Shown here: positions 1 through 35,361 of the stretch, one piece after another | Layout: every line of letters begins with the position of its first letter | How positions within the stretch are numbered: the first letter of the stretch is position 1 | NCBI GenBank assembly: GCA_016935095.1 | Contig: JAFGRO010000002.1 | Span: 3,306-67,305 of the forward strand | DNA: 64,000 nucleotides | Direction: 5' to 3' | Origin: Candidatus Woesearchaeota archaeon | GTDB lineage: Archaea > Nanobdellota > Nanobdellia > Woesearchaeales > GW2011-AR15 | Notes under the pieces: generated by a model | Database searches by the model: none | The model's input: the letters and a program-made list of their open reading frames with translations, nothing else | What the model was told of the DNA's origin: nothing | Made by a program: the position numbers and the translations under genes

Positions 1-220
1 TAACTCCTGTTTTTTCAATGACCTGTTTTATCTCATTGATTCCGTCTCTATTAAAAACAGGGTTTTGCGAGATATCTTCTTCAAAAATCCATTCTATGCA
101 ATCAAGGCCAACTTTATTTGCTGAATAAAATTCATTTTTCCAGCTATCTTTAGGAAATGCCTGTATCCTGTTATTTACTGGCGGAGAAAGCCTTCCCTGC
201 ATCACACCAATTCTGTTCAT
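1..220 (-). CDS. Partial CDS (N-terminal 73 aa; continues beyond the window start). Xylose-isomerase-like TIM-barrel sugar phosphate isomerase/epimerase family; last gene of the nonulosonic acid operon.
   Basis: Reverse-complement translation starts MNRIGVMQGRLSPPVNNRIQAFPKDSWKNEFYSANKVGLDCIEWIFEED. The GxMQGRL N-terminus is typical of AP_endonuc_2/TIM-barrel sugar isomerases. Its start codon at 218-220 overlaps the upstream stop (ATGA), indicating translational coupling. Confidence 0.5.
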   Translation of the reverse strand, partial: MNRIGVMQGRLSPPVNNRIQAFPKDSWKNEFYSANKVGLDCIEWIFEEDISQNPVFNRDGINEIKQVIEKTGV

Positions 221-1678: not shown

Positions 1679-1682
1679 TTAA

Positions 1683-2714: not shown

Positions 2715-2816
2715 TTTCCCACCTCTGTGTTATGTACAGTACCTTTTTTTATTTATTTAAATAATTTTCTGTCATAAATTAGTTTGTACAGTACAAGTAC
2801 CGTAATAGTTAAAGAA

Positions 2817-4454: not shown

Positions 4455-4478
4455 ATTATTATTTCAAATATTCTTTTG

Positions 4479-9217: not shown

Positions 9218-9228
9218 TTATTCCACTC

Positions 9229-11582: not shown

Positions 11583-11592
11583 TTTTTCACCT

Positions 11593-14507: not shown

Positions 14508-15953
14508 ATGTTCACAAAAAAAAACAAAGTATTGTTTATAATTCATGATGTATACCAGGAAGATAATCAGTTTCCATTAGGTCCAGGTTATCTTGCTGCT
14601 GTTCTTAATGATAAAGGAGCTTATGTTGAATCATACTGTATGGATATATTTCATTATACCCATGAGCAGCTGGCAGAGCATTTGCAGAAAAACGAGTATG
14701 ATTTAATATGTCTGGGCTTTTTAGCTGCCAGGTTCAAGGAAACAGTTCTTGATTTAAGCAGAGTTATTAATCAGAATAAGAAAAATGCATGGCTTGTTTT
14801 AGGTGGTCACGGTCCCTCTCCGATTCCTGAATATGTGCTAAAAACCACACAGGCAGATGTTATTGCTATAGGCGAGGCAGAAAACACTATTGTTGAATTA
14901 TTAAAATGCAAAATATCAGATGGTGATTTATCAGAAGTGCATGGCATTGCTTACCCTGAAAATAATGAAATAAGAATAACGCAAAAAAATAATATTGTTA
15001 AAAATCTGGACAACATCCCTTTTCCCTTGTGGGATATATTTCCAATGGCTAAATATACTACTTGTTTACAATTATTTAATCAGGAGTCAAATGAAAAAAG
15101 TTTTGTATTCCTCACGAGCAGGGGCTGTGTAAACAGGTGTAATTTCTGCTACAGGCTTGAAAAAGGGCTGAGATTAAGAAGTATATCAAATATTATTGAA
15201 GAATTCAGACAATTATATGACAGATATGGTTTGAATTGTTATTTTTTCATGGATGAATTATTTGTATTAAATAAAAAACGGTTATTGGAATTTGAAAAAG
15301 CACTTAAAGATGCAAATCTGAAAATAAAATTCTCCTGCAATGCAAGAGTTGACATTATGGATGAAGAAATGGTGAGGATTCTTAAAAGATGCGGCTGCCA
15401 ATTTATAAATTTCGGTTTTGAATCAAGCGATGATAATGTGCTTAAACTCATGAATAAAAATGCGACTGTTGAACAAAATATAAGGACGCTTGAGGTTGTT
15501 AAGAAGGTAGGAGGAATAGGGATGGGTCTTAATTTTCTCTGGAATAATTTAGGTGATAGCGAAAGAACCCTGAAGCAGAATGTTGCATTAATAAAGAGAT
15601 ACAACACATATGACCAATGCCGTACAATCAGACCTGTTACGCCTTATCCCGGATCTGATTTATATTATAAATTGATTGAGCTAGGGAAACTAAAAGGTCC
15701 TGAAGATTTTTTTAACAGGTTTATAAATTCAGATTTAATTTTAGTTAACCTTATGGATATGCCAGATAAAGAAGCATATCAGCATTTGTTAAAAGCAAAC
15801 ACAGAGCTTATTCTTGACCATTATAAGCATACCCAAGGAGATATGGAAAAGGCAAATGCGCTTATCCGGAAATTCAAAGACTTGTATGAGGGCAGGATAA
15901 CTAATTTTCGTGGTGCCAGGCATTATAACAAAAACGAGCAACAGAGTAAATAG
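14508..15953 (+). CDS. Cobalamin-binding (B12) radical SAM protein, class B radical-SAM family
   Basis: N-terminal B12-binding-like Rossmann domain (KVLFIIHDVYQ...LGPGYLAAVL...DLICLG). Radical-SAM cluster motif RGCVNRCNFCY (CxxxCxxC). Confidence 0.85.
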   Translation: MFTKKNKVLFIIHDVYQEDNQFPLGPGYLAAVLNDKGAYVESYCMDIFHYTHEQLAEHLQKNEYDLICLGFLAARFKETVLDLSRVINQNKKNAWLVLGGHGPSPIPEYVLKTTQADVIAIGEAENTIVELLKCKISDGDLSEVHGIAYPENNEIRITQKNNIVKNLDNIPFPLWDIFPMAKYTTCLQLFNQESNEKSFVFLTSRGCVNRCNFCYRLEKGLRLRSISNIIEEFRQLYDRYGLNCYFFMDELFVLNKKRLLEFEKALKDANLKIKFSCNARVDIMDEEMVRILKRCGCQFINFGFESSDDNVLKLMNKNATVEQNIRTLEVVKKVGGIGMGLNFLWNNLGDSERTLKQNVALIKRYNTYDQCRTIRPVTPYPGSDLYYKLIELGKLKGPEDFFNRFINSDLILVNLMDMPDKEAYQHLLKANTELILDHYKHTQGDMEKANALIRKFKDLYEGRITNFRGARHYNKNEQQSK

Positions 15954-15984: not shown

Positions 15985-17610
15985 TCAGGTTCCGGCAATT
16001 CTGTAAATCTCTTTTACAATATTTTCTGTCCCGTTAAAAGGCTGATATAAATATTTTTCAATCTCTCTCCGGTTTTTATTAAGGACTTTTGTGAGTTTAT
16101 TTTTATTATTCACAATCCTGGCTACCTTTGAAAAATCATCTTTTATTCCCTGTTTTATAATGGTTTCTAGTTCATTGTATTCATAACCGCCGATTTGCTC
16201 ATATCCCGGAACAACAAAATAAACAACCAGTTTGTTCATCAGGATTGTATCAATCATACAGGTTGATCCGAAAGAAATGCAGAACAGGCTGTTCTTTATT
16301 AAATTGTGCAGTATTTTCTGGTTATTGTGATCACTTTTAGACCTTATTATCTCAATATCCATATCTTTGAATCTGTTCTTGAAGTTGTAATATGAATTAA
16401 TCAGCTTTTCAGCCGGGTGCAGTTTAATTTTAACCTTATTAAATCCTCTGTTTTTGAGGTTTTTCAGTATGGTCTCAATAATGGATGAATATTGCTTTTT
16501 GCTAAAATAATTATCTTCAACAACAGGCTGGGTAAATAAGAGAACATATTGTCCTGAAATATCCTGATTCTGCTGTATCTCAAATTTAAGATCTTCAAAT
16601 AAATTAGTTCCTGTTGCAATTATTCGTTTTAAAGCTTCCTTGTTTTGGTATTTGGCAATAATCTTTCTTTGGGGTTTTCCGAATGTAAAATAATATTGCT
16701 TTTCCAAAAGATAAAGATACTCCAATTCAAATAATGGTCCGTGCTGGATTATAACAGAAGGAATATTTCCTGTATGTGCAGCGGCATGCGCACATTCATC
16801 TAAAAGGCCCCAGGTAGAAAATATCAGCTTGATCTTCCTTTGCTTTATGATTTTTTCAAATGTATAATAATATAAAAAGACAATACTTAACCACTCTTCT
16901 GAAAACAGGAAATTAAATTCTTCTTCAATATAGGGATAGAATGATTTGTTTTTGAGAGCAAGTATCTTTTTTATTTTATTTTTACTGAGCCTTTTCCATT
17001 TGAAATTATACTCCCTGGCTTTACGCAGGGATTTTTTAAACAGGGTATCATCAAAAAAATCTTCTGCCCTTAGAAAATCCATGCTTGGCTTAATATTTGA
17101 GAAATATGATAAGGGTTGTATCGAAACTAAATTGCATTCAAATTTATTATCTTTTTTTATTTTTTCAATGATGCTGCTCAGCCTGTAGGCAGTTACTTTG
17201 TCATTTATTGTCCGGATCTGGTCTGCATATGTCTGGAACAATATCCCTTCTCTGCTGCAATTAGTTGTCTCGGGCCTGTTCAATTTCCAGGTAAACCACC
17301 TGAAATAAAAAACAAATTTTAGATACATTAAGACAAGGCCAAATGCAATCTTCTTATTTATTTTATATAAAATGCTTCTCTTCTTATTCTTCAGGTATGC
17401 ATTAATATTGTCCTGTAAATTCCAGGATCTTATATTAAACGGCGTTCTGATTAATTTATCCTTTAGAAACCAAAATAAGGGAATTCCATTAAAATCAAGA
17501 AATTTGCCGGTTTCTATATCCTTACCTTTATATTCCGCAAATTTATAAATTAAATATCTTACCTTTTCCAGAATTTCATTACTCATTTGTATGGACCTTT
17601 GATTATTCAT
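15985..17610 (-). CDS. Membrane-anchored GT-B-like glycosyltransferase-like protein, paralog of 2817..4454
   Basis: Shares with 2817..4454 its architecture and the CAHAAAHTGNIPSVIIQHGP motif, a hydrophobic helix near residue 100 (FGLVLMYLKFVFYFRWF), and a C-terminal GT-B-like segment (FCISFGSTCMIDTILMNKLVVYF). Confidence 0.5.
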   Translation of the reverse strand: MNNQRSIQMSNEILEKVRYLIYKFAEYKGKDIETGKFLDFNGIPLFWFLKDKLIRTPFNIRSWNLQDNINAYLKNKKRSILYKINKKIAFGLVLMYLKFVFYFRWFTWKLNRPETTNCSREGILFQTYADQIRTINDKVTAYRLSSIIEKIKKDNKFECNLVSIQPLSYFSNIKPSMDFLRAEDFFDDTLFKKSLRKAREYNFKWKRLSKNKIKKILALKNKSFYPYIEEEFNFLFSEEWLSIVFLYYYTFEKIIKQRKIKLIFSTWGLLDECAHAAAHTGNIPSVIIQHGPLFELEYLYLLEKQYYFTFGKPQRKIIAKYQNKEALKRIIATGTNLFEDLKFEIQQNQDISGQYVLLFTQPVVEDNYFSKKQYSSIIETILKNLKNRGFNKVKIKLHPAEKLINSYYNFKNRFKDMDIEIIRSKSDHNNQKILHNLIKNSLFCISFGSTCMIDTILMNKLVVYFVVPGYEQIGGYEYNELETIIKQGIKDDFSKVARIVNNKNKLTKVLNKNRREIEKYLYQPFNGTENIVKEIYRIAGT

Positions 17611-23416: not shown

Positions 23417-24067
23417 TTATCTTTTTTTAAACTCTTCCCAGTTGTCCAGAAATTCCTGGATTGTGCTCTCTGTTCTCGGGTTCCAGGGCAGTTTCATTAA
23501 AATAGGAGTTGGTATTGTTAGAATATGAGCTCCGCTAAGCATTGCCCTGTTTATATGCGAAACCTGCCTGAAGCTTCCCAAGATGATTTCTGATTTGATT
23601 TTATGCCTTTCAAAAATCTCAACAGTTTCACAAACAATTTGTTCGGCATTATAGCCCATATCCTCTATCCTTGCCCAGAATAAGCTCACGAATGTGGCAC
23701 CTGCTTTTGCCGCTAAAACCGCCTGCTTTGTACACATGCATGCAGTAACATTGGTTTTTATGCCTTCTTTATTAAGTATGTTCACTGCTTTGAGGCCTGT
23801 AATCCCCATTGGAATTTTTACATTAACGTTATTACCCCATTTTGCAAATTTCCTGGACTGTCTAATCATTTCATCTAAATCATTTGAAGTAACCTCAATG
23901 CTTATCGGTCCTTTCACAATCTCAATAATCTCTTTCATTCTGGTTTCAAAATCAATGCCTTTTTCTTTTGATACAATGCTGGGATTAGTTGTACAGCCGT
24001 CAATAATACCCCAGCTTAAAAGTTCTTTTAATTCATCCAGATTTGCAGTGTCTGCAAATATTTTCAT
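23417..24067 (-). CDS. tal: Transaldolase / fructose-6-phosphate aldolase family (short archaeal-type Tal/FSA)
   Basis: MKIFADTANLDELKEL..GIIDGCTTNPSIV is the Tal/FSA N-terminal signature. 216 aa. Confidence 0.85.
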   Translation of the reverse strand: MKIFADTANLDELKELLSWGIIDGCTTNPSIVSKEKGIDFETRMKEIIEIVKGPISIEVTSNDLDEMIRQSRKFAKWGNNVNVKIPMGITGLKAVNILNKEGIKTNVTACMCTKQAVLAAKAGATFVSLFWARIEDMGYNAEQIVCETVEIFERHKIKSEIILGSFRQVSHINRAMLSGAHILTIPTPILMKLPWNPRTESTIQEFLDNWEEFKKR

Positions 24068-24131
24068 TTTAAATCACCCTTTTTATTATATATATTTAAA
24101 ATGAAAACTACGAACATGAGTGAGTTTGTTT

Positions 24132-24692
24132 TCATTTTTTTCCCTCCAGCTTTTTAATGATAGTTACAGCATCTTTAAGATTTTTTGCAAAATAATCAGG
24201 GTTAATCTTTTTTTCATGCATTATTTTACACAGGGCGCATTTTAATTCGGATAACATAATTGTGGTTTTGCATACTTTTCCAGCTTCAATATCTGACAAT
24301 AAATCTCCTATCATATATGATTCTTTTAAATCAATGTTGTGTTCTTTAGCAGCTCTCAGCAGCATTCCTGATTTTGGTTTTCTGCATTCACATTCTCCAG
24401 TATATTTCGGATGATGAATGCAATTGTAAATAAAATTGATTCCAAGCTCGCTTTTCATATATTCATCAATTTTTTCTAAATCCTGTTTTTTAATATAGCC
24501 AAATGCAACCCCCGGCTGGTTTGAGACTACAATTATTTTGAATCCTACTCTTTTAATTTCAGCAATTGCTTCTTTTACATCCTGCAGGATTATAAACTCA
24601 TCAAGGTTTTTTGCACTGTATATTCCTTTGTCATCATGATACATCAATTTATTAATTACACCGTCCCTGTCCAGAAAAACAGCTTTATTCAT
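24132..24692 (-). CDS. gmhB: HAD-superfamily D,D-heptose 1,7-bisphosphate phosphatase (GmhB-like)
   Basis: VFLDRDGVIN is HAD motif I of the HisB/GmhB subfamily. Cys-rich insert (CECRKP). 4-nt overlap with upstream gmhA. Confidence 0.75.
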   Translation of the reverse strand: MNKAVFLDRDGVINKLMYHDDKGIYSAKNLDEFIILQDVKEAIAEIKRVGFKIIVVSNQPGVAFGYIKKQDLEKIDEYMKSELGINFIYNCIHHPKYTGECECRKPKSGMLLRAAKEHNIDLKESYMIGDLLSDIEAGKVCKTTIMLSELKCALCKIMHEKKINPDYFAKNLKDAVTIIKKLEGKK

Positions 24693-25290
24693 TGTAATTT
24701 TGTATGAGTTCTTTTAACCTGAAAATTATTAAGTGTTGCAATACAACATGGAATGCCTCAACATGAGGTGTTGCATTAAACGGCACAACAACACATGCAT
24801 CGCAGATCTGTTTCATAGCACCGCCGTCAAACCCTGAAAACCCTATTGTTGTGCCTTTATTATCAATTACATACTGGTAAGCTTTTGTCAGGTTTTGGGA
24901 CCAATTGCCTGCGTTTCCTTTTCCAGAGCCTCCGTGAACACTAAATCCTATGAGTATATCTCCTTTTTCAAACAGGTTTTCTAATTGGCCAAGATACAGG
25001 TTTTCCCATCCCTCATCATTAACCCATGCGCTCATCAAAGGAATATTATCATTAAGACAGATTGCTTTGAACCTTTTCCTGCCTTTAGTCATTGTTGTTT
25101 TTGCAAGGTCAGCAGTGAAATGCGTTGCAGTGGAGGCTGATCCGCCGTTTCCCATTAGAAAAATCTGTTTTCCCTGTTTCCATGCATTGAACAGTAGTTC
25201 AATTACTTTGTTTATATCTTCTTTATTAACTTCATCTATGATTGTTTTACATTCTTTGAAAAAAGTATTTATGTATTCTTTGTGCACCAT
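24685..25290 (-). CDS. gmhA: Phosphoheptose (sedoheptulose-7-phosphate) isomerase, SIS domain (GmhA)
   Basis: QIFLMGNGGSASTATHFTADLAK is the canonical GmhA SIS-domain motif. Confidence 0.85.
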   Translation of the reverse strand: MVHKEYINTFFKECKTIIDEVNKEDINKVIELLFNAWKQGKQIFLMGNGGSASTATHFTADLAKTTMTKGRKRFKAICLNDNIPLMSAWVNDEGWENLYLGQLENLFEKGDILIGFSVHGGSGKGNAGNWSQNLTKAYQYVIDNKGTTIGFSGFDGGAMKQICDACVVVPFNATPHVEAFHVVLQHLIIFRLKELIQNYNE

Positions 25291-25301
25291 TTTTTTCAGC
25301 C

Positions 25302-26288
25302 TTACCTTGAATTGAATATTATCTTTGTGCCGTCAAAGTCAAATCTAAACGGCATTTCAATTAGATCTTTGCTTATCATAAACTCCCTAAATTTTTTTTG
25401 ATGCTGGTTTTCAACATAAAACATAAAAAAACCACCGCCTCCTGCGCCAATAATTTTACCTCCGATAGCTCCGTTTTTTAGTGCTGAGTTATACCACTCA
25501 TCTATTTCAGGGGTTGTCATTTTATTTGTAAATGTTTTTTTAGTATCCCAGTGAATCTTAAGCCATTCCCCAAATCTTCTTGGATTATCTTTTTCAAGTG
25601 CTTTTTTGATTTCATAGCCAATCTCTTTTGTCCTTGTTAAGTATTGCATTTTTTGTTCATCTTTTTCAGCTTCACTTTTTTGTTCTGATAAAACTTCACT
25701 TGCACTTCTTGTTATTCCTGTATAAAACAAAAGAATATTGTTTTCAAGCTCTCTTATTGTATCAAAGCTTAGATTCAAAGGAGTAACCAGCACATTCCCT
25801 TTTTGGTTGATGTTCAGGTTAATGATCCCTCCAAAAGCAGCAGCATACTGGTCTTGTTTGCCGACTGGCTCTTTAAGAACATCCATTTCAAGGTAGCATG
25901 CTTCCTCTGCGAGAGTCTTTTTTGAGACATATTCTCCTTTATATACATGAAGTGCATGAAGCAACCCGACTGTAAATGAACTTGAGCTTCCGAGACCTGC
26001 TTTTGAACTAACATCTCCAATAGAAGTAATTTCAAGATTATCATGTATCTTTAAAAATTTCAGTGCCTCTTTAACAATAGGGTGTTCTATTTCATTATTA
26101 TTATTAACAATTTCAGTCTTTGAATAACTGACACGGGTCCCTTTATGGAATCTTTTGTTAACAGAGATATACATGTATTTATCAATTGCAGCGGTTACTA
26201 AAGAGCCTTTATGTTTCTTGTAATAAAAAGGCAAATCAGTTCCCCCGCCTCCAATAGAAATCCTAAACGGTGTTTTTGATATAATCAT
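25302..26288 (-). CDS. hddA: GHMP-family sugar kinase, D-glycero-alpha-D-manno-heptose-7-phosphate kinase-like (HddA)
   Basis: GHMP ATP-binding loop (PVGKQDQ..., GLGSSSS). Glycine-rich ISIGGGGTD. Position within the gmh/hdd operon. Confidence 0.8.
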   Translation of the reverse strand: MIISKTPFRISIGGGGTDLPFYYKKHKGSLVTAAIDKYMYISVNKRFHKGTRVSYSKTEIVNNNNEIEHPIVKEALKFLKIHDNLEITSIGDVSSKAGLGSSSSFTVGLLHALHVYKGEYVSKKTLAEEACYLEMDVLKEPVGKQDQYAAAFGGIINLNINQKGNVLVTPLNLSFDTIRELENNILLFYTGITRSASEVLSEQKSEAEKDEQKMQYLTRTKEIGYEIKKALEKDNPRRFGEWLKIHWDTKKTFTNKMTTPEIDEWYNSALKNGAIGGKIIGAGGGGFFMFYVENQHQKKFREFMISKDLIEMPFRFDFDGTKIIFNSR

Positions 26289-26362
26289 CCCAAGATATAA
26301 ACAAAAATAACCGCTATATAAAGCTTTCGCCGAAAAATTTATAAAGAGAAAATCTCATAAAT

Positions 26363-27103
26363 CTAATTTGTATTTAATCCTGAGTGTTTTATCTCTTCCT
26401 CAAACTCTTTTATCCTTTCTATCTTGCCAAGCTCTTTCCAGAATCCTTTTACAGGGAAACCCATTAGTTTTTTGTTTTGTTTTAGCAACAAAGGGAATAG
26501 ATCATATGCAAAATCAAATTTCCTGTTTTCAGGAATATAATCTAAAACATCTTTATTAATAACATATATCCCGGAATTAACCCAGTTTTTTTTTCCCTGT
26601 TTTAGAAAACCCTCTAAAAATTCTGGAGAGGGCCTTTCAATAAATTCAATAATCTGAAAATCAGGCTTTACATTAATTAAACTTGAGCCAATTTTGTCTT
26701 TTATTCTCATTAAAATTGTTGCTGCTGAATTATTTGCATTATGAAACTCAAGCATATCCTTAAAAGTTAAATCGGATATAATGTCTCCGTATAAAACTCC
26801 GAAAGTATCTTCAATCAAATCAGGATTAATATTTTTAACAGCACCTGCTGTCCCAAGTAATTCTTTTTCCTGGCTGTAAGTTAAATTAACACCAAGTTCT
26901 TTCCCTTCTTTAAAATAATCTTTGATTCTTTCTGATAAGTGGCCTACACATAAAATAATATCTGTAATGCCTTGTTTTTTCAATAACTGTAATTGATACC
27001 AAAGAAGCGGCTTTTCATTGACCTCAATCATTGATTTTGGCATCTTTTCTGTTAAAGGATGCATCCTTGTTGCCAGACCGCCGCAGATAATAACAACTTG
27101 CAT
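26363..27103 (-). CDS. hddC: Sugar-phosphate nucleotidyltransferase, D-glycero-alpha-D-manno-heptose-1-phosphate guanylyltransferase-like (HddC)
   Basis: MQVVIICGGLATRMHPLTEKMPKSMIEV is the NTP_transferase G-x-G-x-R signature. Operon context. Confidence 0.8.
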   Translation of the reverse strand: MQVVIICGGLATRMHPLTEKMPKSMIEVNEKPLLWYQLQLLKKQGITDIILCVGHLSERIKDYFKEGKELGVNLTYSQEKELLGTAGAVKNINPDLIEDTFGVLYGDIISDLTFKDMLEFHNANNSAATILMRIKDKIGSSLINVKPDFQIIEFIERPSPEFLEGFLKQGKKNWVNSGIYVINKDVLDYIPENRKFDFAYDLFPLLLKQNKKLMGFPVKGFWKELGKIERIKEFEEEIKHSGLNTN

Positions 27104-27104
27104 T

Positions 27105-28040
27105 TTATTTGTTTAACAGAATATTTACTGTTTTATTTACAGCCTCTTCAGAATTAAATTCAGGCTTCCAGCCTAGATTACAGATTTTTCCAGCAGATAA
27201 ATATGAAACAGGGACGTCTCCTTTCCAGCCCTGTTTTGAGCCTGTATATTTTAATTTTACATTTTTTAGTTCCATTCCTTTAATGACTGATTTTGCAATA
27301 AAGTTCACATCACAAGTCCCCTCAGAAGCAAGATTAAAAATATTCAGCTGTTCTTTGGAATTATTCAACCCGAAAAAAATTCCTTTAATGCAATCTTCCA
27401 CATATAAATAATGCTTGGTCTGGTGGCCATCCCCTAATATCAATAACTCATCGGGATTTTTTTTAAGCTTTTTAATAAAATCAAAAATCACGCCATGAGT
27501 TTGTCTTTTCCCGATAATATTTGCAAACCTGAATATCCATGCCCTGAAATTGAAAATATGGCAAAACGCACTGATTAAATTTTCAGAATAGACTTTGCTT
27601 GCAGCATATAGTGAGATAGTTAATTTTCCGCTGTAATTTTCATCAGCAACATCTTTACCGGTATTGCCATAGACTGTGCCGCTGGATGAAAACACAATTT
27701 TATTAATATTATTTAATCTCATGGCTTCAAGGACATTATATGTTGCTACGGCATTTTGCTTTAAATCCAGATTAGTCTCTTTTAAGCCGCGTAAAACATC
27801 AGGGTTGGCTGCAAAATGAAAGACAACATCATGCTCTTTAATAGAATCTTTGAGCTTTTCAAAATCCAGTATATCTGCATGAATAAACTTGAATTTATCA
27901 TTTTCAAAATAGTGCTTTAAAAAATCCTTTTTTCCAGAGCTTAGATTATCATAAACAGTTACAGTATGACCTTCTTCAATTAGCATGTCAACTAAATTAC
28001 TTCCAATGAATCCGGCTCCTCCTGTGATAAATGCTTTCAT
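27105..28040 (-). CDS. NAD-dependent nucleotide-sugar epimerase/dehydratase (SDR extended family)
   Basis: MKAFITGGAGFIGSNLVDMLIEEGHTVTVYDNLSSG. YxxxK is expected at YAASK. First gene of the heptose operon. Confidence 0.8.
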   Translation of the reverse strand: MKAFITGGAGFIGSNLVDMLIEEGHTVTVYDNLSSGKKDFLKHYFENDKFKFIHADILDFEKLKDSIKEHDVVFHFAANPDVLRGLKETNLDLKQNAVATYNVLEAMRLNNINKIVFSSSGTVYGNTGKDVADENYSGKLTISLYAASKVYSENLISAFCHIFNFRAWIFRFANIIGKRQTHGVIFDFIKKLKKNPDELLILGDGHQTKHYLYVEDCIKGIFFGLNNSKEQLNIFNLASEGTCDVNFIAKSVIKGMELKNVKLKYTGSKQGWKGDVPVSYLSAGKICNLGWKPEFNSEEAVNKTVNILLNK

Positions 28041-28387: not shown

Positions 28388-29935
28388 TTAAGGAATTGAA
28401 GTAAGTATAGAACTTTTGACAGTATTTATACTTGTATTATCTTTTTTTGGGACTAAAATATTAGCTACAACTTTTGGGAGCCCGCTAACATCCTGCTTTC
28501 TGATATGTTCAATACCACATCTTAACAGAAATAATATCTGATTTATTGTAAATAACATCTTTGGAATCTTAATATTGCCTTTTTTATTATATACTTTAAG
28601 TAGAATTCGTGAAAGGGTTTTATTCTGCGTACTCTGTATGACAGTGAGAATGTAATTTAACAATTTGTAGTTTGGATTAAACATACTATCGTTGTAATAT
28701 TTTTCAAGTAAGTTCAGCTCTTTTGCTTTATTGTATAATTCTGTACCAGGATAAAATCGAAGGGAGTATAAGAATAATGTAAATTTTCCCTTTAAATTCA
28801 GCAAAAACTTAATTGTGGAGAGCAAATCTTCTTCATTATTAACTAAAGGATTATCCATGATAATATCATAATAGGGAAATACTAAATTATTATAACTATT
28901 AATCATATCATTAACTTCAATAATTTTTGATATATTGGTAGGTCTCCTGTATAGTTTTAAGGTTTTCAAATCAGCTGATTGTATACCCATCCTTGTTCTC
29001 TTCATTCCCGCATTAACAAGAATGTCCAGTTTTTTTTTTGTGACAAAAGAAGGCATAAATCCCATTATTCCAAAAGGTATTTTTATCTCCTTTTTGTATA
29101 TTTTAGCAAATTGTTCAAGTGTTTCTTCTTTCATTGCTATGAAACCATCATCTGAAAAATTAATATATCTTATATCACGTGAAAGTGATAGGGCATATTT
29201 AATTTCATCAATTATATAATTAACACTATGGAATCTGAACTTCTCATATCCTTTTCCGATTTGTTTGTATTTGCTGTTTACACAATATGAGCAAGAATAT
29301 GGGCAACCTAAACTGGCAAAAATATGATACACAGAACCTATTAATTTTCTTCTGATCTTTTTATCTACTCTAATTATCTTATTTTTTTTAAGAATAAATT
29401 GATGACTAATTCCATAATCCGGAAAGGGCATATTATCAATGTTTTGTATTACAGGCCTAATCTTATTTTTTATAATTTTTCCATTTTGATTCATACTCCA
29501 AATATTCTGAATATTTGTTCTTGTTGGTTCTCTACAATACTCCAACAGGGAGTCAAACCCTTCTCCAATATTAATGAGGCCAGATATTTTTATTGCATCT
29601 TCAGGGAAGATAGTCGGATGAATCCCTCCCAAAATAATCGGTTTTTTTAGTTTTTTCAATGATTTGTACAATGAAGCAACTCTTTTCCTATCCATACTCA
29701 TCATTGTAATTCCAATTAAATCACACTCTTTTATTATTGAGTTTATTTGTTTAATTATGTTATTACTATACTCAGAAAAAGATTGTCTAAAAAATAATTG
29801 CCACATTTCTGAATACGTAGTTAAGAAGATAAGTTTTGTTTCAATTTTATTTTTTCTTAAGTAAGAAGACACCAACCTCAGACCATATGCCCTATAACTA
29901 TCTAATGGACTGATTAAGGCTACTTTTTTTATCAT
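28388..29935 (-). CDS. Cobalamin-binding radical SAM protein (second paralog)
   Basis: N-terminal B12-binding-like domain (VALISPLDS...DLIGITMM...ILGGIHPT). Radical-SAM motif SLGCPYSCSYC. Confidence 0.8.
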   Translation of the reverse strand: MIKKVALISPLDSYRAYGLRLVSSYLRKNKIETKLIFLTTYSEMWQLFFRQSFSEYSNNIIKQINSIIKECDLIGITMMSMDRKRVASLYKSLKKLKKPIILGGIHPTIFPEDAIKISGLINIGEGFDSLLEYCREPTRTNIQNIWSMNQNGKIIKNKIRPVIQNIDNMPFPDYGISHQFILKKNKIIRVDKKIRRKLIGSVYHIFASLGCPYSCSYCVNSKYKQIGKGYEKFRFHSVNYIIDEIKYALSLSRDIRYINFSDDGFIAMKEETLEQFAKIYKKEIKIPFGIMGFMPSFVTKKKLDILVNAGMKRTRMGIQSADLKTLKLYRRPTNISKIIEVNDMINSYNNLVFPYYDIIMDNPLVNNEEDLLSTIKFLLNLKGKFTLFLYSLRFYPGTELYNKAKELNLLEKYYNDSMFNPNYKLLNYILTVIQSTQNKTLSRILLKVYNKKGNIKIPKMLFTINQILFLLRCGIEHIRKQDVSGLPKVVANILVPKKDNTSINTVKSSILTSIP

Positions 29936-30169: not shown

Positions 30170-30916
30170 TCAGGGTTTTTGGTAAACAAAAAACAGAGAT
30201 AAACCCACTGGAAAATGAAAAGAATGTTTAATTAAAAAATTTTCAAAATTCAGTATCCTGTATAAAATCCAGTTAAAAAGAGGATTAAGGTTAATTAATT
30301 CGGATTTTTCATCTTTAACAAAAATCTTAAGAATTAATTTTCTGAAAGCCATAGGAAAAAATAAAATACAATTCCAATAATAAATGTAAACCTTTTTAAA
30401 TTTTTTAAATAATCTTTCAATGTCTCTTTTTGAATATCTCCTATAGTGTTTTTCATATAGGTCCATGGGTCCAAATAAAACCTTATGTGCCGGAACAGTG
30501 CCAATAAACAGACCTCCTTTTTTTAAGATTCGAAAAGCTTCTTTTACTGTTTTTTTATCATCTTTGATATGTTCAAGAACATCTGAACAAATTACAATAT
30601 CAAACTTTTTTTTAAAATCCAGCTTGTTGGCATCCATTAATAAAATCTTTTTTTGTTTTTTTTTTAATATATTAACTATTTTTATGGAAATGTCAATAGA
30701 AGTTACATCTCCGTATTTTTCATATGATTCAATATCTTCACCGACACCTACTCCTTCATTTAATATTATAACCTTCTTTTTGTTTTTCTTAAGAACCAGC
30801 ATTTCAAGGAATTTTGCAATTAATTCTCTTTTTGCACGAAACCACCAGTAATCTTTCTGATAGCCTAATGTTTTATAATCCTGATAATCCATTTTTTTCT
30901 TTAAACTTACTGTCAA
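30170..30916 (-). CDS. Class I SAM-dependent methyltransferase
   Basis: VIILNEGVGVGED is motif I. DIVICSDVLEHI and LKKGGLFI resemble motifs II and III. Confidence 0.7.
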   Translation of the reverse strand: MTVSLKKKMDYQDYKTLGYQKDYWWFRAKRELIAKFLEMLVLKKNKKKVIILNEGVGVGEDIESYEKYGDVTSIDISIKIVNILKKKQKKILLMDANKLDFKKKFDIVICSDVLEHIKDDKKTVKEAFRILKKGGLFIGTVPAHKVLFGPMDLYEKHYRRYSKRDIERLFKKFKKVYIYYWNCILFFPMAFRKLILKIFVKDEKSELINLNPLFNWILYRILNFENFLIKHSFHFPVGLSLFFVYQKP

Positions 30917-31595
30917 GTCTTCTTTTTAAAACTATTAAATCAAATGCCATTTTAAAGGGATCATAAATACTCATTTTGCTATTATCCTTGTGTTCCCATT
31001 CAATAGGAATATTTGTTAAAGTAAAATTTAATTTATTAATCCTGTAAAATAATTCAACATCAAAAATCCACCCTGTTGAATCTAATGAACTGAATAATTT
31101 TCTTGCCACATCTGATTTAAACCCTTTAAATCCACAAAGATTATCTTCAATCCCTAAACCGAAGATTAAATTAACATATGGGTTAAACAAAGAGGAGGTA
31201 AATTTTCTTAATAAAGGTTGATTTATACTTGATTCTTCTAATGACCTGTTTCCGACAACAACATCATACTCCTCCAGTTTTTCAATCATTTTCGGAATCT
31301 CTTTTGGCTTAATTGAGCCATCTGCATCAATAAACATGACTTTTTCTGCCTTTGAGCTGAATATTCCTTTTCTTATTGCATATCCTTTCCCGCGGTTTTT
31401 TGAGTAGGTAATTATTCTGCAGTTATTATTCTGCACTTTTTTAAGTTTAGATAATGTTCTGTCAGTGCTGCCGTCATTGACTAATATAATCTCATAATCT
31501 TCTAATCCTTCTTTACAAAAAGAGATGAGTTCATTTAAGAAAGGAAGAGCCCTTTTCTCTTCATTGTACAAAGGAACTATTATTGAACAATCCAT
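30873..31595 (-). CDS. Family 2 glycosyltransferase, polyprenol-phosphate sugar synthase-like (GtrB/DPM1-like, soluble form)
   Basis: CSIIVPLYNEEKRALPFL..EIILVNDGSTDRT...FIDADG are GT2 signature motifs. Confidence 0.8.
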   Translation of the reverse strand: MDCSIIVPLYNEEKRALPFLNELISFCKEGLEDYEIILVNDGSTDRTLSKLKKVQNNNCRIITYSKNRGKGYAIRKGIFSSKAEKVMFIDADGSIKPKEIPKMIEKLEEYDVVVGNRSLEESSINQPLLRKFTSSLFNPYVNLIFGLGIEDNLCGFKGFKSDVARKLFSSLDSTGWIFDVELFYRINKLNFTLTNIPIEWEHKDNSKMSIYDPFKMAFDLIVLKRRLDSKFKEKNGLSGL

Positions 31596-31601
31596 TCTAT
31601 T

Positions 31602-32531
31602 TCATCTGTTTTTTTCAAGTGTTTTTATCTCCATCAGCGCACTAGGGATTAAGATGTTATAAGCATACAACATGTATCTAAAAACAGAGTTACCTATAAA
31701 AAGTTGTGCAAGTATTAAAAAAATCAAAGGAAATGCTTTTTTTACAAACCGCGGAGCTATCTTATAATTTTTTAAAGCAAATATCCAAATACTTGAATAA
31801 ATTATTATTACAATTAAAAGATAATAGGGTCTAGTAAGCAGCATTCTTAAACCAAACCAGTTATCCTTTAAATTAGCATAAAATATGGGATCTCCAACTT
31901 CGGTTCCACCTAAATTAAACTTTATTAAATAAACAGTTATTATTATTAAAGCAATTAACAAACCGGTTCTTACTAATTTTTTTTTTTGAAGAAAATAAAA
32001 AACAGGGCAAAATAAAATTTGAATCTTGTTTAATGCACCAATTACACATACTAAACAGAGCCACATAAAATGTGCATTAATAAGCATTAAATAAAAAAAT
32101 AATGTTTGCAGAAAAATTGAAATTGCATCTGCTTTTACCCATACTAAATAATGAGTTGAGGGATTAAGCAAAAAAAGCAACACTCCAATAAATGCAATAA
32201 TTCTGGAAAAACCTAGCTTTTTTAAATAATAAAAAAACACAATAGTTGTAGAAATAACAAAAAAAGAATTTAATATAAAAAAGTTAATATGAACATTAAA
32301 GGGAAGAAACTTGACTAACAAGGGAGTTAATATCCTGTATTTCATATTTGTATTTTCCTGGAGTAACTTTCCTTGACTCATCTCAATATAAGTCTTGCTG
32401 TCCCATGACTCTTCCCAGTACTGGTGGTAGAATCTATAGCTTATTCCGGACCAGAGAGTTGCACAAGCCCCTAAAATAAGAATAATTATAATTAAATCTT
32501 TTTTCAATTCTTTAGATAAAATCAAAACCAC
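31602..32531 (-). CDS. Polytopic integral membrane protein (about 9 predicted TM helices), unknown function. Possible glycan polymerase or GT-C-like component.
   Basis: Hydrophobic throughout with regularly spaced ~20-aa apolar segments. No recognisable soluble domain. Confidence 0.45.
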   Translation of the reverse strand: MVLILSKELKKDLIIIILILGACATLWSGISYRFYHQYWEESWDSKTYIEMSQGKLLQENTNMKYRILTPLLVKFLPFNVHINFFILNSFFVISTTIVFFYYLKKLGFSRIIAFIGVLLFLLNPSTHYLVWVKADAISIFLQTLFFYLMLINAHFMWLCLVCVIGALNKIQILFCPVFYFLQKKKLVRTGLLIALIIITVYLIKFNLGGTEVGDPIFYANLKDNWFGLRMLLTRPYYLLIVIIIYSSIWIFALKNYKIAPRFVKKAFPLIFLILAQLFIGNSVFRYMLYAYNILIPSALMEIKTLEKNR

Positions 32532-32534
32532 CTG

Positions 32535-32888
32535 CTACTTTTTCATTCTCATTAAACAAACTCCAAGACCCCCTAAAAATACTAATAGAGGAATTAATAT
32601 ATATATAAATTTATTCAATGGGACACCGATCATTGATAAGATAAACCACAAAGTCGGACAGACAACCAGGCCGATAATATTGCAGATAATAAATTTTTCA
32701 ATAAATGAGAGATCTAAAAGAGAGGTCCATGTAAGATATGGAAAAAAGAACAAATACCAATAAACAACTCCGAATTTCAATGCTTTTAAAATATCATTGA
32801 AAACAGCACCAATAATTAACCAGACAATTAATCCGGAGATGCCTAAATAAATCATGTCTTTATTTCTTTTATCTCTTTGTTTTTTCAT
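32535..32888 (-). CDS. Small 4-TM membrane protein, GtrA-like (polyprenol-linked sugar translocation family)
   Basis: 117 aa with four hydrophobic helices. Neighbours a GtrB-like GT2 and a UbiA-family enzyme. Confidence 0.45.
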   Translation of the reverse strand: MKKQRDKRNKDMIYLGISGLIVWLIIGAVFNDILKALKFGVVYWYLFFFPYLTWTSLLDLSFIEKFIICNIIGLVVCPTLWFILSMIGVPLNKFIYILIPLLVFLGGLGVCLMRMKK

Positions 32889-34485
32889 TTTTCAGTATAA
32901 CAATATTGTTCTGCTCATAAATTTTCGTAAAATTATTTATGTTTATGAGAATATCATTAATTATAAACTGGTTCAGTTGCCAGATGTTCTGGTTTAGATG
33001 CTCAAAAATAATATAATCAAAGTCTATGAACCGTTTAGGACAAAATCCAATTTCCTGTTTTTCATAATTAAAAAGAGACAGCTCTTTTTCAAACCTGATA
33101 ACAAAACTGCTTCCTTCCGGGCAAAAATCAATCTCAGGGAGTTCTCTGTTTTCTGCAATATATTGTGCTGCTTCCGGAAGTCTTTCAACTTCTAAAATAT
33201 AGTTTGCCCTTTTAAGGAACATATTTGCTCCCTGGTAAAACCCGTCAAAAAAGAAAATTAAGTCATCTTCAGTGGTTATACTGTTCAGCCAGTTCAGCAA
33301 ATCAAACTTCTCTTTTGTTATATGCTGGTATTGTAGCCTGTTTTTTAATTCAGTATAATGAGGGATTCCCGCTGCAATAAATATTAAACAAACAGCTAAA
33401 ACTATAATTGTTTTATTCAGGTTGATTAAATTTGCAATATTTTTTACAAGGAGAGAATAAATAATATAAGCTGCTATCGGATAAACAAAAAAAGGCAAAA
33501 TTGCCTTATGTCTTAAGATATAAGTCGGAACTATAAACATTGCGCCTATGTAAATATAGGCAAAGAAATAACCTTCTAATAAAATAAAATCCTTGTATTT
33601 TTTCCAGTTTAGTAATACCTGAATTAAGCCTGTTATTGCCAAAATCAATATTATTATTGACAAATCACTTAATTCCGGAAAAAGCAGGGGAATCTTTTCA
33701 GAAGGTATATGGAATTTAATACTGTTTTTGCCCCTGTTTTCAAACCACATTAATACCCTTGGTATGTAAAGTACAAACGGGATTATTGAAATGAGACCCA
33801 TGATCAGGATTCTCCTGGATATCTGGATTATATTTTTGCATTTGATGATCTTAATTAGAACAATAAACAGTAATGGAATAAAAGCAGCAAGCTCAGAAAA
33901 ATGGCTTAAGTAAATCCCTGTTAATGCTAATGTTAAAACAATTGTTTTCCAGAACTTTTCTTCAATTACGTAATCATAGAAGATATAATATGAAAATATT
34001 AATAACAGATTGCCCAGTGCCTGGATGCTCATGCCAATGTATGAGTTATAGATCCATACGTCTATATTAAATGGGAGAACAAACATGCTCCCTGCAATCA
34101 ATCCGATTTTTTTTGAATTAAAAATCTTTGATGCAAAAATATATATTATCAATATCTGGAATGCATTGTAAACCATCCCGAAAATAGCCGAAATATTCCA
34201 TGTCTGCAATCCTGTCACTTTTCCTGTTGCTGCAACATGAATATAAAATAAGGGGGGAAGTACATTGATAATATCTGCTTTATTATACACAAAATAAGGC
34301 GGCATATTTTTATAGGATCCTGTATTGATGATATTATCTGCAACAAGCTGATGATTAAATGCATCTGCTGCCTTAAGGTTTCCTGGATAATCAAAAATAC
34401 CTACCGTTGAAATTCTGAGAATTAAACCCAAAACAAATAAAATAAGGATTATCCAGTCTTCATTGATTATTATTTTATTTTTCAT
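32869..34485 (-). CDS. Large polytopic membrane protein (about 11 TM helices) with a C-terminal soluble domain of roughly 160 aa. Candidate GT-C-type glycosyltransferase.
   Basis: Topology inferred by eye from the hydrophobic profile. The C-terminal ~160 aa (LKNRLQYQHITKEKF...) are hydrophilic. Confidence 0.45.
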   Translation of the reverse strand: MKNKIIINEDWIILILFVLGLILRISTVGIFDYPGNLKAADAFNHQLVADNIINTGSYKNMPPYFVYNKADIINVLPPLFYIHVAATGKVTGLQTWNISAIFGMVYNAFQILIIYIFASKIFNSKKIGLIAGSMFVLPFNIDVWIYNSYIGMSIQALGNLLLIFSYYIFYDYVIEEKFWKTIVLTLALTGIYLSHFSELAAFIPLLFIVLIKIIKCKNIIQISRRILIMGLISIIPFVLYIPRVLMWFENRGKNSIKFHIPSEKIPLLFPELSDLSIIILILAITGLIQVLLNWKKYKDFILLEGYFFAYIYIGAMFIVPTYILRHKAILPFFVYPIAAYIIYSLLVKNIANLINLNKTIIVLAVCLIFIAAGIPHYTELKNRLQYQHITKEKFDLLNWLNSITTEDDLIFFFDGFYQGANMFLKRANYILEVERLPEAAQYIAENRELPEIDFCPEGSSFVIRFEKELSLFNYEKQEIGFCPKRFIDFDYIIFEHLNQNIWQLNQFIINDILININNFTKIYEQNNIVILKNEKTKR

Positions 34486-34488
34486 TAT

Positions 34489-35361
34489 CTATAAAAAGTA
34501 TACCGAAATAAATGCAATTACTGCCCAGAGCAGGATTCCGGAAAAAATCTTTTTGTCCTTGTATATCAAATGGGGATGCCTTGTAATTTTTGAGCCTGAT
34601 TCCACAAGGTAAAGATACCTGAAAATCACATACAAGGAAACAGGCAGGCTAAACAAAAGATAAGTGAATTCACTAAAAAAGATATACAGGCTGTAAACAA
34701 TAATCAATATTGTAGTTGAGATTACTGTTAATGCCTTAGTCAGGCTCAGATTATAATAGCCCAGAACTTTTTTATGGGAGACAGATTTTTTTCCTAACAG
34801 CTTCAAGTCAGATTCCCTTTTGCTGACAGATAAAAACAATGATAAAAAAAAAGGACAGAAAATCAGCCATTGGCTTACTTTTACATAAGGGAGGTTGCCC
34901 TGTGAAATTACAAAAGCGCCGCTTACAGCCCTTATTACAAAATTTATTGCAATAATGACAACATCAATAAATGGCTCATTTTTTAATATCAGTGAATAAA
35001 AAGTCCCGGTTATAAAAAGGCTTAAAACAAAAATAAAAAACATTAATGATAAATTAAAACTGCTTAAAAAAGATACTATTAATAATAATGATGCTATAAT
35101 AACTGCACTTAGTTTTGTAATTCTTCCGGATGCCAGCGGTCTTGTCCTTTTTTCAGGGTGTGCTTTATCCTGCTTAATATCAATTAAATCGTTAATTATA
35201 TAATTCACAGAAGAAACCAGGCATAATATAAAGAACCCGTAAACTGTTTTCTGGATTGCAGATAAATTAAATAATTGTTTAGCAAACACCAGAGGAAGAA
35301 ATATTACCAGATTTTTATAATACTGGTGAGGTCTTGCGAGCTTTATTAAATCTTTAATCAT
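34489..35361 (-). CDS. UbiA-family prenyltransferase, decaprenyl-phosphate phosphoribosyltransferase (DPPR synthase)-like
   Basis: LARPHQYYKNLVIFLPLVFA plus the Asp-rich motif NDLIDIKQDKAHPEKRTRPLASG (NDxxDxxxD) typical of the UbiA/DPPR-synthase clade. 8-9 TM helices. Confidence 0.8.
   Translation of the reverse strand: MIKDLIKLARPHQYYKNLVIFLPLVFAKQLFNLSAIQKTVYGFFILCLVSSVNYIINDLIDIKQDKAHPEKRTRPLASGRITKLSAVIIASLLLIVSFLSSFNLSLMFFIFVLSLFITGTFYSLILKNEPFIDVVIIAINFVIRAVSGAFVISQGNLPYVKVSQWLIFCPFFLSLFLSVSKRESDLKLLGKKSVSHKKVLGYYNLSLTKALTVISTTILIIVYSLYIFFSEFTYLLFSLPVSLYVIFRYLYLVESGSKITRHPHLIYKDKKIFSGILLWAVIAFISVYFL

Follow-up and report, generated by a model that had tools for sequence, protein, structure and literature searches.

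A widespread six-gene operon in a Woesearchaeote glycan island may make a GDP-activated heptose

The classical pathway to GDP-D-glycero-alpha-D-manno-heptose, which runs through GmhA, HddA, GmhB and HddC, is known from the S-layer glycan of Aneurinibacillus thermoaerophilus, the capsules of Campylobacter jejuni and Burkholderia pseudomallei (WcbL/WcbN/WcbM in the latter) and the O-antigen of Yersinia pseudotuberculosis. Known GDP-heptose loci modify the heptose by 4,6-dehydratases, cupin epimerases and reductases, and are not known to use a GalE-type 4-epimerase. The HldE-type pathway also uses a ketose-7-phosphate through an SIS isomerase and a GmhB-type phosphatase, and has in addition a ribokinase-family kinase acting on the beta-anomer, an adenylyltransferase of the cytidylyltransferase fold and a C6-epimerase. 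A further related system is the lincosamide (lincomycin/celesticetin) module of Streptomyces, in which LmbR is a transaldolase yielding octulose-8-phosphate, LmbN an isomerase, LmbP a kinase, LmbK a phosphatase, LmbO a guanylyltransferase and LmbM an epimerase acting on the GDP-sugar (PMC4351081, PMC12945683). Here we analysed six genes on the minus strand at positions 23417-28040 of a 64,000-nucleotide (nt) stretch of DNA (the window) from a Candidatus Woesearchaeota archaeon (assembly GCA_016935095.1, contig JAFGRO010000002.1). They encode the same four superfamilies as the classical pathway, with the same expected order of action, together with a transaldolase and a GalE-like epimerase, and the three additional enzymes of the HldE-type route are all missing from the operon. 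Our favoured reading, to which we give a probability of roughly 0.55, is that the six genes form one operon making a GDP-activated heptose for the surface glycans of the gene island in which they lie.

The six open reading frames (ORFs) in the ORF list have exactly the coordinates given in the initial annotation of this DNA, which had described them as contiguous minus-strand genes, and the same neighbours recur across related loci well beyond what chance would give. In the direction of transcription, the first gene encodes a GalE-like NAD-dependent short-chain dehydrogenase/reductase (SDR; 27105-28040, 311 amino acids [aa]), followed by a sugar-1-phosphate nucleotidyltransferase of the NTP_transferase family (26363-27103, 246 aa), an HddA-like GHMP kinase (25302-26288, 328 aa), a GmhA-like SIS-domain isomerase (24685-25290, 201 aa), a HAD-IIIA phosphatase of the GmhB/HisB-N type (24132-24692, 186 aa), whose gene overlaps that of the isomerase by 8 nt, and a transaldolase of the TAL/FSA family (Tal; 23417-24067, 216 aa), the last gene. 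The spacings in the same order are 1, 74, 11, -8 and 64 nt, and 347 nt of non-coding DNA lie 5' of the SDR gene, a layout that is operon-like. The epimerase had been placed upstream in the body of the initial annotation and downstream in its title; the former is right, since the gene stands at the 5' end of the operon. Both Pfam and NCBIfam back the superfamily of all six proteins.

In the pathway that we propose, the transaldolase would make sedoheptulose-7-phosphate (S7P) from fructose-6-phosphate and erythrose-4-phosphate, and the GmhA-like isomerase would convert it to D-glycero-D-heptose-7-phosphate with either the manno or the gluco configuration at C2. The HddA-like kinase would then phosphorylate the anomeric hydroxyl to give the alpha-1,7-bisphosphate, the GmhB-like phosphatase would remove the 7-phosphate, and the nucleotidyltransferase would couple the alpha-1-phosphate with GTP to form GDP-heptose, on which the SDR would act as a C4-epimerase. 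The C7 substrate, the GDP moiety, the stereochemistry and the use of the product in a glycan are what we infer from these proteins and their setting.

A scan with the kinase profile of one genome per GTDB species gave at least 593 species-level matches, of which the best 80 loci were analysed; neighbours were counted within 7 kb of the kinase gene in the 50 of these 80 loci that had at least 12 kb of sequence. The SIS isomerase was present in 44 of the 50 loci and Tal in 41, the HAD phosphatase and the nucleotidyltransferase were found in 39 each, and an SDR of the GDP-Gal4E type in 29; for these last three, the counts are too low where genes are fused. Linkage to the kinase is thus no looser for Tal than for the core enzymes, and this conserved synteny ties the transaldolase to the pathway. 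Some nine lineages of archaea and over fifteen groups of bacteria keep the adjacency. Gene order, protein families, catalytic motifs, synteny and taxonomic spread are all direct observations. Two lineages of SIS protein and two of Tal were seen in this neighbourhood. The archaeal type of both occurs in every archaeon except Methanospirillum and in Dehalococcoidia and other Chloroflexota, with 87% bootstrap for the SIS clade, and the bacterial-type clades have bootstrap values of 100% (SIS) and 99.5% (Tal). Because two distinct Tal lineages occupy the same neighbourhood, the pathway appears to want transaldolase activity as such; two SIS lineages were likewise recruited to it.

Other genes also recur beside the kinase, namely those for family 2 glycosyltransferases (GT2; 35 loci), Gfo/Idh/MocA oxidoreductases (28 of the 80 loci), classical SDRs (20) and methyltransferases, and in 9 loci an enzyme of the UDP-Glc/GDP-Man dehydrogenase family lies next to the module. 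Examples of the oxidoreductase neighbours are found in loci L054 (6967-8001), L041 (11482-12321) and L006 (10792-12108). Their recurrence suggests that many lineages oxidise or reduce the GDP-sugar further; in the window, no gene for a Gfo/Idh/MocA, classical SDR or UDP-Glc/GDP-Man dehydrogenase protein adjoins the operon.

The kinase matched Pfam GHMP_kinases_N (49.6 bits) and GHMP_kinases_C (39.1 bits), and the motifs KAGLGSSSS and GAGGGGF can be read in its sequence. Its best Protein Data Bank (PDB) matches with phmmer were three heptose kinases, 3k85 from B. thetaiotaomicron (E = 9e-39), C. jejuni HddA (4n3o; 2e-34) and B. pseudomallei WcbL (4usk/4usm; 1e-33 to 4e-34), followed at a distance by fucokinase (1e-16), galactokinase (8e-15) and mevalonate kinase (1e-6). 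The top NCBIfam match was HddA. The kinase is therefore nearer to HddA than to galactokinase, in agreement with the initial annotation, and we predict from these similarities an aldose-7-phosphate (or 8-phosphate) 1-kinase giving the alpha-1-phosphate. The window kinase and those of the 80 loci form a clade of their own, apart from characterised HddA and WcbL (100% bootstrap). Databases name these proteins differently: NCBI calls them 'galactokinase' ('GHMP kinase' on RefSeq plasmids) and JGI D-glycero-alpha-D-manno-heptose-7-phosphate kinase (hddA), and relatives with inconsistent names include P0001, P0002, P0004, P0024, P0028, P0035, P0116 and P0150. Neither the 'galactokinase' nor the hddA label rests on an assayed member of the clade.

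The NCBI names would imply a hexose pathway, built from a galactokinase and a mannose-1-phosphate/glucose-1-phosphate nucleotidyltransferase and involving no heptose. NCBI applies 'galactokinase' to the window kinase and its relatives alike, and the nucleotidyltransferase has a mannose-1-phosphate guanylyltransferase as its top NCBIfam match. However, the E values for heptose kinases (1e-34 to 1e-39) are far below those for galactokinases (1e-15), the NCBIfam scores differ in the same direction (162 bits for HddA versus 53 for galactokinase), JGI annotates the kinase family as hddA, and a conserved GmhA-like isomerase and GmhB-type phosphatase would have no role in hexose activation. We consider a hexose pathway very improbable, and we rejected the 'galactokinase' annotation, heptose kinases scoring about 20 orders of magnitude better.

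The SIS protein matched Pfam SIS_2, carries the motif GNGGS and has no CBS domain. All 15 of its 15 PDB matches were phosphoheptose isomerases or DiaA (best 1tk9, 1.6e-22), and its identity to GmhA is 27-36%. With matches limited to GmhA/DiaA models and structures, it is not of the KpsF type, as had been supposed from the start. The phosphatase shows the motifs DRDGV, SNQ, CIHHPKYTGECECRKP (the zinc loop) and GDLLSD, and thus has HAD motifs I-IV together with the zinc-binding Cys/His insert that GmhB shares with HisB-N. The protein passed the NCBIfam HAD-IIIA cut-offs TIGR01656 (111 vs 84) and TIGR01662 (100 vs 45), and it scored 101 against a cut-off of 250 with the alpha-type model NF050049. 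We predict a terminal phosphatase acting at C7 or C8.

The nucleotidyltransferase is a single-domain protein without an LbH tail, with a match to Pfam NTP_transferase (134 bits, residues 3-238) and a readable signature of the GGxGTR type, GGLATRMHPLT. Among NCBIfam models, mannose-1-phosphate guanylyltransferase scored best (145 bits), ahead of MurU (119) and HddC (113). The PDB gave the same order, with the GDP-mannose pyrophosphorylase (GMPP)/UGPase N-domains of 8x7s, 7whr and GMPPB 7d72 at 97-124 bits and HddC 5xhw/6jq8 at 72 bits; the single best match, 8x7s, is annotated as a UTP-glucose-1-phosphate uridylyltransferase. The earlier label hddC therefore holds for the family, a sugar-1-phosphate nucleotidyltransferase, and is less well supported for closeness to HddC itself, mannose-1-phosphate guanylyltransferases scoring higher, although both types form GDP-sugars. 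Two independent lines, the resemblance of the protein to GMPP and the GDP-type epimerase beside it, make GDP the likely nucleotide, and we predict a heptose-1-phosphate (or octose-1-phosphate) guanylyltransferase.

Among PDB structures searched with phmmer, the SDR matched Archaeoglobus fulgidus GalE-1 (3EHE; 6.5e-85, 48.5% identity) and Pyrococcus horikoshii PhGal4E_1 (8RDG/8RDH; 8e-81, 46.8% identity) over its full length. It has the motifs SSSGTVYG and YAASK and keeps P80, Y145, K149, H182 and the Trp of RGWKGD that stacks on GDP. In NDP-sugar 4,6-dehydratases such as RmlB and GMD, a Thr-Asp-Glu (TDE) sequence precedes the tyrosine of YxxxK. This TDE motif is absent from the window SDR and from all 38 of the cluster-linked SDRs that were inspected. 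The expected product is therefore a C4 epimer, and a 6-deoxy sugar is unlikely. The initial annotation had allowed for 6-deoxy or epimerised heptoses; the epimerised product accords with the predicted C4-epimerase, and 6-deoxy-heptose was rejected as a product. Archaeal enzymes of the GDP-Gal4E subgroup have been described, with their key residues, as promiscuous 4-epimerases that prefer GDP-sugars, and their only reported substrates are GDP-Glc, UDP-Glc, GDP-L-Fuc and GDP-L-Gal (PMC12171764). The SDR shares 47-48% full-length identity with members of this subgroup (PhGal4E_1 8RDG/8RDH, A. fulgidus GalE-1 3EHE, P. calidifontis 3AW9/3ICP) and belongs to it as a predicted GDP-sugar C4-epimerase. 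It differs from them in that the loop-R arginine (R83) is shifted by one position (L83 and R84 in the window protein; ANPDVLRG vs ANPEVRIG). Its conserved linkage to the operon suggests that a GDP-heptose or GDP-octose may be the physiological substrate of the subgroup.

The transaldolase scored 168 bits with Pfam TAL_FSA, is short, of class 3/TalC size, and is about 50% identical to its PDB matches from T. maritima (1vpx, 7e-58), B. subtilis (3r8r) and T. acidophilum (3s0c). Residues D6, E58, K84, T108, F130 and R133 align with those of these three solved transaldolases. A Phe in place of Tyr and a Glu in place of Gln separate Tal from fructose-6-phosphate aldolase (FSA) in work on TalB and FSA. 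The pattern here is that of a transaldolase and not of an FSA, E. coli FSA having Q and Y at these positions. The protein falls just under the TIGR00875 cut-off (227 vs 246), reads SLFWAR in place of the canonical SPFVGR and has TAC rather than TLV after the catalytic Thr. In 57 of 57 cluster-linked Tals, the Pro of the SPF motif is replaced by L, I or V. We had taken this S-[LIV]-F motif as a sign of a new acceptor specificity and dropped the idea, the bacterial-type cluster Tals being regular members of TIGR02134; it is probably a family trait. TIGR02134 is the NCBIfam equivalog for 'Staphylococcus-type transaldolase', presumed to be the housekeeping Tal of Staphylococcus and Coxiella, and the bacterial-type cluster Tals pass its cut-off (320-349 vs 282), from which we take them to be ordinary transaldolases. 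The window protein shares with the short transaldolases (1VPX, 3R8R, 3S0C; TIGR00875/TIGR02134) their length and their Schiff-base Lys/Asp/Glu/Thr/Phe set, and differs in that its gene is embedded among those for sugar-nucleotide synthesis and does not stand with genes of the pentose-phosphate pathway. It is the predicted source of the ketose-phosphate precursor, S7P or possibly octulose-8-phosphate. Archaea generally lack transketolase and transaldolase, and the latter two are present in only 21.6-42.4% of DPANN genomes (PMC8407392); a cluster-borne Tal therefore makes sense in archaea.

The closeness of Tal to ordinary enzymes raises a narrower reading, in which only the SIS isomerase, kinase, phosphatase and nucleotidyltransferase form a pathway, and the Tal is a housekeeping enzyme and the SDR a general UDP/GDP-hexose 4-epimerase, both of them bystanders. 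The roughly 50% identity of the window Tal to ordinary transaldolases, with all catalytic residues kept, agrees with this, as do the promiscuity of the GDP-Gal4E enzymes, which also occur in P. horikoshii and A. fulgidus, and the gaps of 64 and 74 nt, which could hold internal promoters. Yet the adjacency persists across lineages for tal (41 of the 50 loci) and for the GDP-Gal4E-type SDR (29 of the 50), two distinct Tal types sit in the same neighbourhood, and the stop codon of the SDR gene lies 1 nt from the start codon of the nucleotidyltransferase gene. We find it unlikely that these two genes are bystanders.

A more serious competitor comes from the comparison with lincosamide biosynthesis, in which the operon would be the glycan-building counterpart of the octose pathway and its product a GDP-octose (C8). 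In this route, an LmbR-like Tal would move a C3 unit from fructose-6-phosphate or S7P to ribose-5-phosphate, giving octulose-8-phosphate, an LmbN-like SIS protein would produce a gluco-configured octose-8-phosphate, and the SDR would epimerise the GDP-sugar like LmbM. By their described roles, the six families match LmbR, N, P, K, O and M one for one and share their six-part architecture, whereas the classical GDP-heptose pathway accounts for 4 of the 6 genes. The linkage of Tal in 41 of the 50 loci extends to bacteria in which a housekeeping pentose-phosphate pathway is surely present. The kinase and SIS clades stand apart from HddA and GmhA, and residues of the catalytic site and the phosphate loop are changed. 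The SDR subgroup accepts GDP-glucose, which is gluco-configured, and LmbM acts on a gluco-configured GDP-octose. The Gfo/Idh/MocA oxidoreductase in 28 of the 80 loci would also be relevant if LmbZ belongs to that family. Ribose-5-phosphate is universal, and many archaea lack transketolase and hence erythrose-4-phosphate (PMC8407392).

Other features speak against an octose. The cluster Tals of the bacterial type belong in good standing to TIGR02134, and the window Tal is about 50% identical to ordinary transaldolases; the Rhizobium versions of the cluster and 9 of the 50 large loci have no tal. Although the cluster is so widespread, neutral octoses are not known from the glycans of cell surfaces, and the open-access literature searched contained no report of a GDP-octose cluster outside the lincosamides. 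The lincosamide pathway continues through LmbL, LmbZ and LmbS (6,8-dehydration, transamination), of which LmbL and LmbZ are a dehydrogenase and an NAD(P)-dependent oxidoreductase (PMC4351081, PMC12945683), and no LmbS-, LmbL- or LmbZ-like gene adjoins the operon in the window. Further, LmbN is fused to a carrier-protein domain, and the lincosamide module is an antibiotic pathway of one actinomycete genus, in contrast to an operon set in a glycosyltransferase-rich surface-glycan island. We hold it tentatively, as a minority view, that the operon, along with hundreds of archaeal and bacterial relatives, is a cell-surface-glycan counterpart of LmbR-N-P-K-O-M making a GDP-octose that is then 4-epimerised. 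If this were true, neutral octoses would be a widespread and overlooked building block of prokaryotic glycans, the lincosamide antibiotic pathway would be a late offshoot of a glycan module, and the 'promiscuous' archaeal GDP-sugar 4-epimerases would have a known physiological substrate. A more modest variant, in which a remodelled isomerase gives the C2 epimer and the product is GDP-D-glycero-D-gluco/galacto-heptose, is possible.

Returning to GDP-heptose as the favoured product, several points weigh against it, the first of which concern the core enzymes. All four score below the equivalog cut-offs of their classical counterparts: the kinase for HddA (162 vs 600, NF049969), the SIS protein for gmhA (94 vs 209, NCBIfam), the phosphatase for GmhB (by a narrow margin, 134 vs 178 with NF006506 and 122 vs 150 with TIGR00213) and the nucleotidyltransferase for HddC (113 vs 300, NF049965). 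The kinase is only 27-29% identical to the three solved heptose kinases. In the SIS protein, the equivalent of GmhA Glu65 is Asp, as in all 70 cluster-linked SIS proteins aligned, and the phosphate loop STSG is replaced by the different and longer SVHGGSGKGNAGNWS; Glu65 and His180 (E. coli numbering) are the catalytic residues of E. coli and B. pseudomallei GmhA, in which the STSG loop binds phosphate. A motif new to the family, TPH[VTA]E (TPHVE in the window), is common to 70 of the 70 cluster-linked SIS proteins aligned. The His180 equivalent is kept in the window protein and in the archaeal type, and the bacterial type lacks this second catalytic His (Q, A or C in its place). The SIS proteins form a clade distinct from characterised GmhA, and the substrate or stereochemical outcome may differ from that of GmhA; with an active site remodelled in this way, the product may be manno- or gluco-configured at C2.

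The remaining points concern the setting. Most of the bacteria carry the cluster Tal, though their normal pentose-phosphate pathway should give S7P, and the characterised GDP-heptose loci that we know of have neither a Tal nor a GalE-type epimerase. No heptose or octose of an archaeal glycan, archaeal hddA or archaeal GDP-heptose pathway is reported in the open-access literature searched, which likewise contained no transaldolase-containing heptose cluster and no relevant report on D-glycero-D-galacto-heptose biosynthesis, and literature and database searches found no assayed member of the kinase, SIS or Tal clade. The trees are by neighbour-joining only, with moderate support for the DPANN clade. 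On the other side, an ordinary precursor, S7P, is supported by the Rhizobium versions without tal and by the ordinary character of the cluster Tals.

Compared with the classical pathway, the operon has a kinase in a separate clade, a remodelled SIS protein and a nucleotidyltransferase nearer to the GDP-mannose pyrophosphorylases. The heptose pathway proposed at the outset stands in its families and its logic of isomerase, anomeric kinase, phosphatase and nucleotidyltransferase, and none of the four core enzymes attains the equivalog score of its classical counterpart. Nor does the operon appear to mirror, as had been stated, the Aneurinibacillus and Campylobacter loci, which are not known to have a transaldolase or a GalE-type epimerase; the closest architecture is the lincosamide GDP-octose module. 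On protein similarity, our best reading is that the operon would work like the GmhA/HddA/GmhB/HddC pathway with a divergent paralogue at every step. The module is a widespread, biochemically uncharacterised sister of that pathway.

The initial annotation had regarded such genes as rare in Archaea and their presence here as probably due to horizontal acquisition, and neither view is borne out. Archaeal loci make up 21 of the best 80, that is, at least 21 archaeal species in about nine lineages, the carriers being Woese-, Pace-, Nano-, Aenigm-, Undin- and Micrarchaeota, Bathyarchaeia, Nitrososphaerales, Thermoplasmatota and Methanospirillum. In the kinase tree, ten DPANN sequences cluster (62% bootstrap), as do those of Bathyarchaeia and Nitrososphaerales (58%), and the remaining archaeal kinases interleave with bacterial ones. 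Recent acquisition of the operon from Bacteria by the window Woesearchaeote would be in keeping with this interleaving in parts of the tree, with the 45-60% identity between bacterial and archaeal kinases and with the clearly bacterial-type SIS protein of Methanospirillum; DPANN are also reported to have gained genes for exopolysaccharide biosynthesis and transaldolase from Bacteria (PMC8407392). Against it, GC content of the six genes (0.317-0.376, compared with 0.261-0.393 across the window's 54 remaining genes) and codon-usage distance (0.190, compared with 0.182 ± 0.039 for other genes) are typical of the window, and neither these nor GC3 showed an anomaly relative to flanking genes. The phylogenies point the same way, with the DPANN kinases together and the window SIS protein and Tal of a type found almost only in archaea (87% bootstrap), and lend no support to a recent bacterial origin. 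The few bacteria with archaeal-type SIS and Tal branch from within the archaea, a pattern that suggests transfer from Archaea to Bacteria. We consider a recent bacterial source quite improbable: in our reading, the module is old and widely shared, and this archaeon did not take it up recently from Bacteria. An ancient transfer of the module between domains is possible. Of the loci with mixed affinities, that of Methanospirillum sp. (L021) carries a bacterial-type SIS and those of Chloroflexota/Dehalococcoidia (L038, L040 and L053) carry archaeal-type SIS and Tal. From these sequences, the module has clearly been exchanged between the domains in both directions.

Relatives in cultured bacteria vary the gene set. 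Rhizobium plasmids, whose hosts are genetically tractable, carry a variant of the cluster (58 of 78 plasmid matches; kinase 43-45% identical) that has no transaldolase. On the R. leguminosarum plasmid NZ_CP016291.1 (L082, 2262-12208), it comprises a SIS protein, a GT2 enzyme, a 657-aa protein without a Pfam match, a membrane protein resembling lysyl-phosphatidylglycerol synthase, an SDR, a 649-aa fusion of NTP_transferase, HAD and PRK (uridine-kinase-like) domains, the GHMP kinase and two more oxidoreductases. In Lachnospiraceae/Eubacterium loci (L017, L022, L050, L056; for example, L056 8933-10279), the nucleotidyltransferase is fused to a GmhB-like phosphatase in a protein of about 450 aa, for which HddC is the best-scoring nucleotidyltransferase model (108 bits). 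The oral Lachnospiraceae species Lachnoanaerobaculum saburreum is known to make D-glycero-D-galacto-heptose polymers and is a possible chemical anchor for the product of the pathway. The D,D-heptose-containing lipopolysaccharide of Coxiella burnetii was considered as another anchor and proved uninformative, since this bacterium uses enzymes of the HldE type (PMC5843353). More distant relatives of the kinase (33-34% identity), annotated 'hypothetical protein', occur on Streptomyces plasmids. In Streptomyces sp. NBC_00868 (L083, 6505-10011), the kinase stands with SIS and HAD proteins and a GalT-type (HIT) nucleotidyltransferase, and in Streptomyces sp. SAT1 (L084, 3190-12045), with a SIS protein, a GalT-type transferase, aminotransferases, a radical-SAM enzyme and a dioxygenase. 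These clusters differ from the operon and resemble heptose pathways for natural products, of a third kind. When homologues of an actinobacterial kinase were sought, the proteins found came from metagenome-assembled genomes and none from Streptomyces.

In the window, the operon lies inside a glycan-biosynthesis island of about 49 kb (positions ~217 to 49,164), which holds two NeuB synthases, two CMP-sugar synthetases, 2-epimerases, a DegT aminotransferase, a formyltransferase and an asparagine synthase, as well as three B12-binding radical-SAM enzymes, several methyltransferases, GT2 and GT4 glycosyltransferases, a PMT-type GT-C enzyme and a UbiA prenyltransferase. The neighbours of the operon are a B12-binding radical-SAM enzyme, methyltransferases and GT2 enzymes. 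The three radical-SAM proteins are encoded at 14508-15953 (plus strand), 28388-29935 (minus strand, directly upstream of the operon) and 47431-49164 (plus strand), and 4 related loci, L012 (3454-4980) among them, have a similar enzyme beside the kinase; sugar C-methylation or another radical modification is a possible role for these proteins. Also on the minus strand, a GT2 enzyme resembling dolichol-phosphate-sugar synthases (30873-31595) is followed by two large proteins without a Pfam match (31602-32531, 309 aa; 32869-34485, 538 aa) and the UbiA prenyltransferase (34489-35361), a set that recalls systems for lipid-linked sugar donors paired with GT-C transferases. The PMT-family GT-C protein, similar to dolichyl-phosphate-mannose protein mannosyltransferases (43455-45146, plus strand, 563 aa), is a candidate for moving a lipid-linked sugar onto protein or glycan.

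At the other end of the island, two nonulosonic-acid gene sets occupy 217-13721 on the minus strand of this DPANN genome. They include the NeuB synthases (1683-2714 and 9229-10365), the CMP-sugar synthetases of the CTP_transf_3 family (923-1678 and 13023-13721), a fused HisF/HisH-like amidotransferase (11593-13026) and the DegT aminotransferase (6224-7477), the nearest DegT to the operon, together with UDP-GlcNAc 2-epimerases, a CBS-fused SDR and a formyltransferase-like protein. These sets suggest sugars of the legionaminic or pseudaminic type with acetimidoyl or formyl decoration. Further ORFs without a Pfam match lie at 10362-11582 and 15985-17610. A 199-aa protein of the window matches Pfam Ribosomal_S2, a size that we take to be of the archaeal type, and the stretch carrying the operon recurs in a Logan assembly. 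In line with an archaeal host, the kinase shows 100% identity to an NCBI protein of a Candidatus Woesearchaeota archaeon. Rfam and tRNA scans of the window gave no matches, and a scan of it for sigma-70 promoters and terminators, which uses a bacterial model not applicable to an archaeon, stayed at background level.

The gene set defines a large cross-domain family of sugar-nucleotide clusters, regularly misannotated or annotated too thinly, and its cultured carriers, among them Rhizobium plasmids, Lachnospiraceae and Bryobacter-like Acidobacteria, open the module to biochemistry. The partnership of Tal with a GDP-sugar 4-epimerase offers a candidate natural substrate for the archaeal GDP-Gal4E enzymes. 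For the organism itself, the operon predicts a heptose or an octose in the glycans of DPANN archaea, whose surfaces mediate their host-dependent lifestyle.

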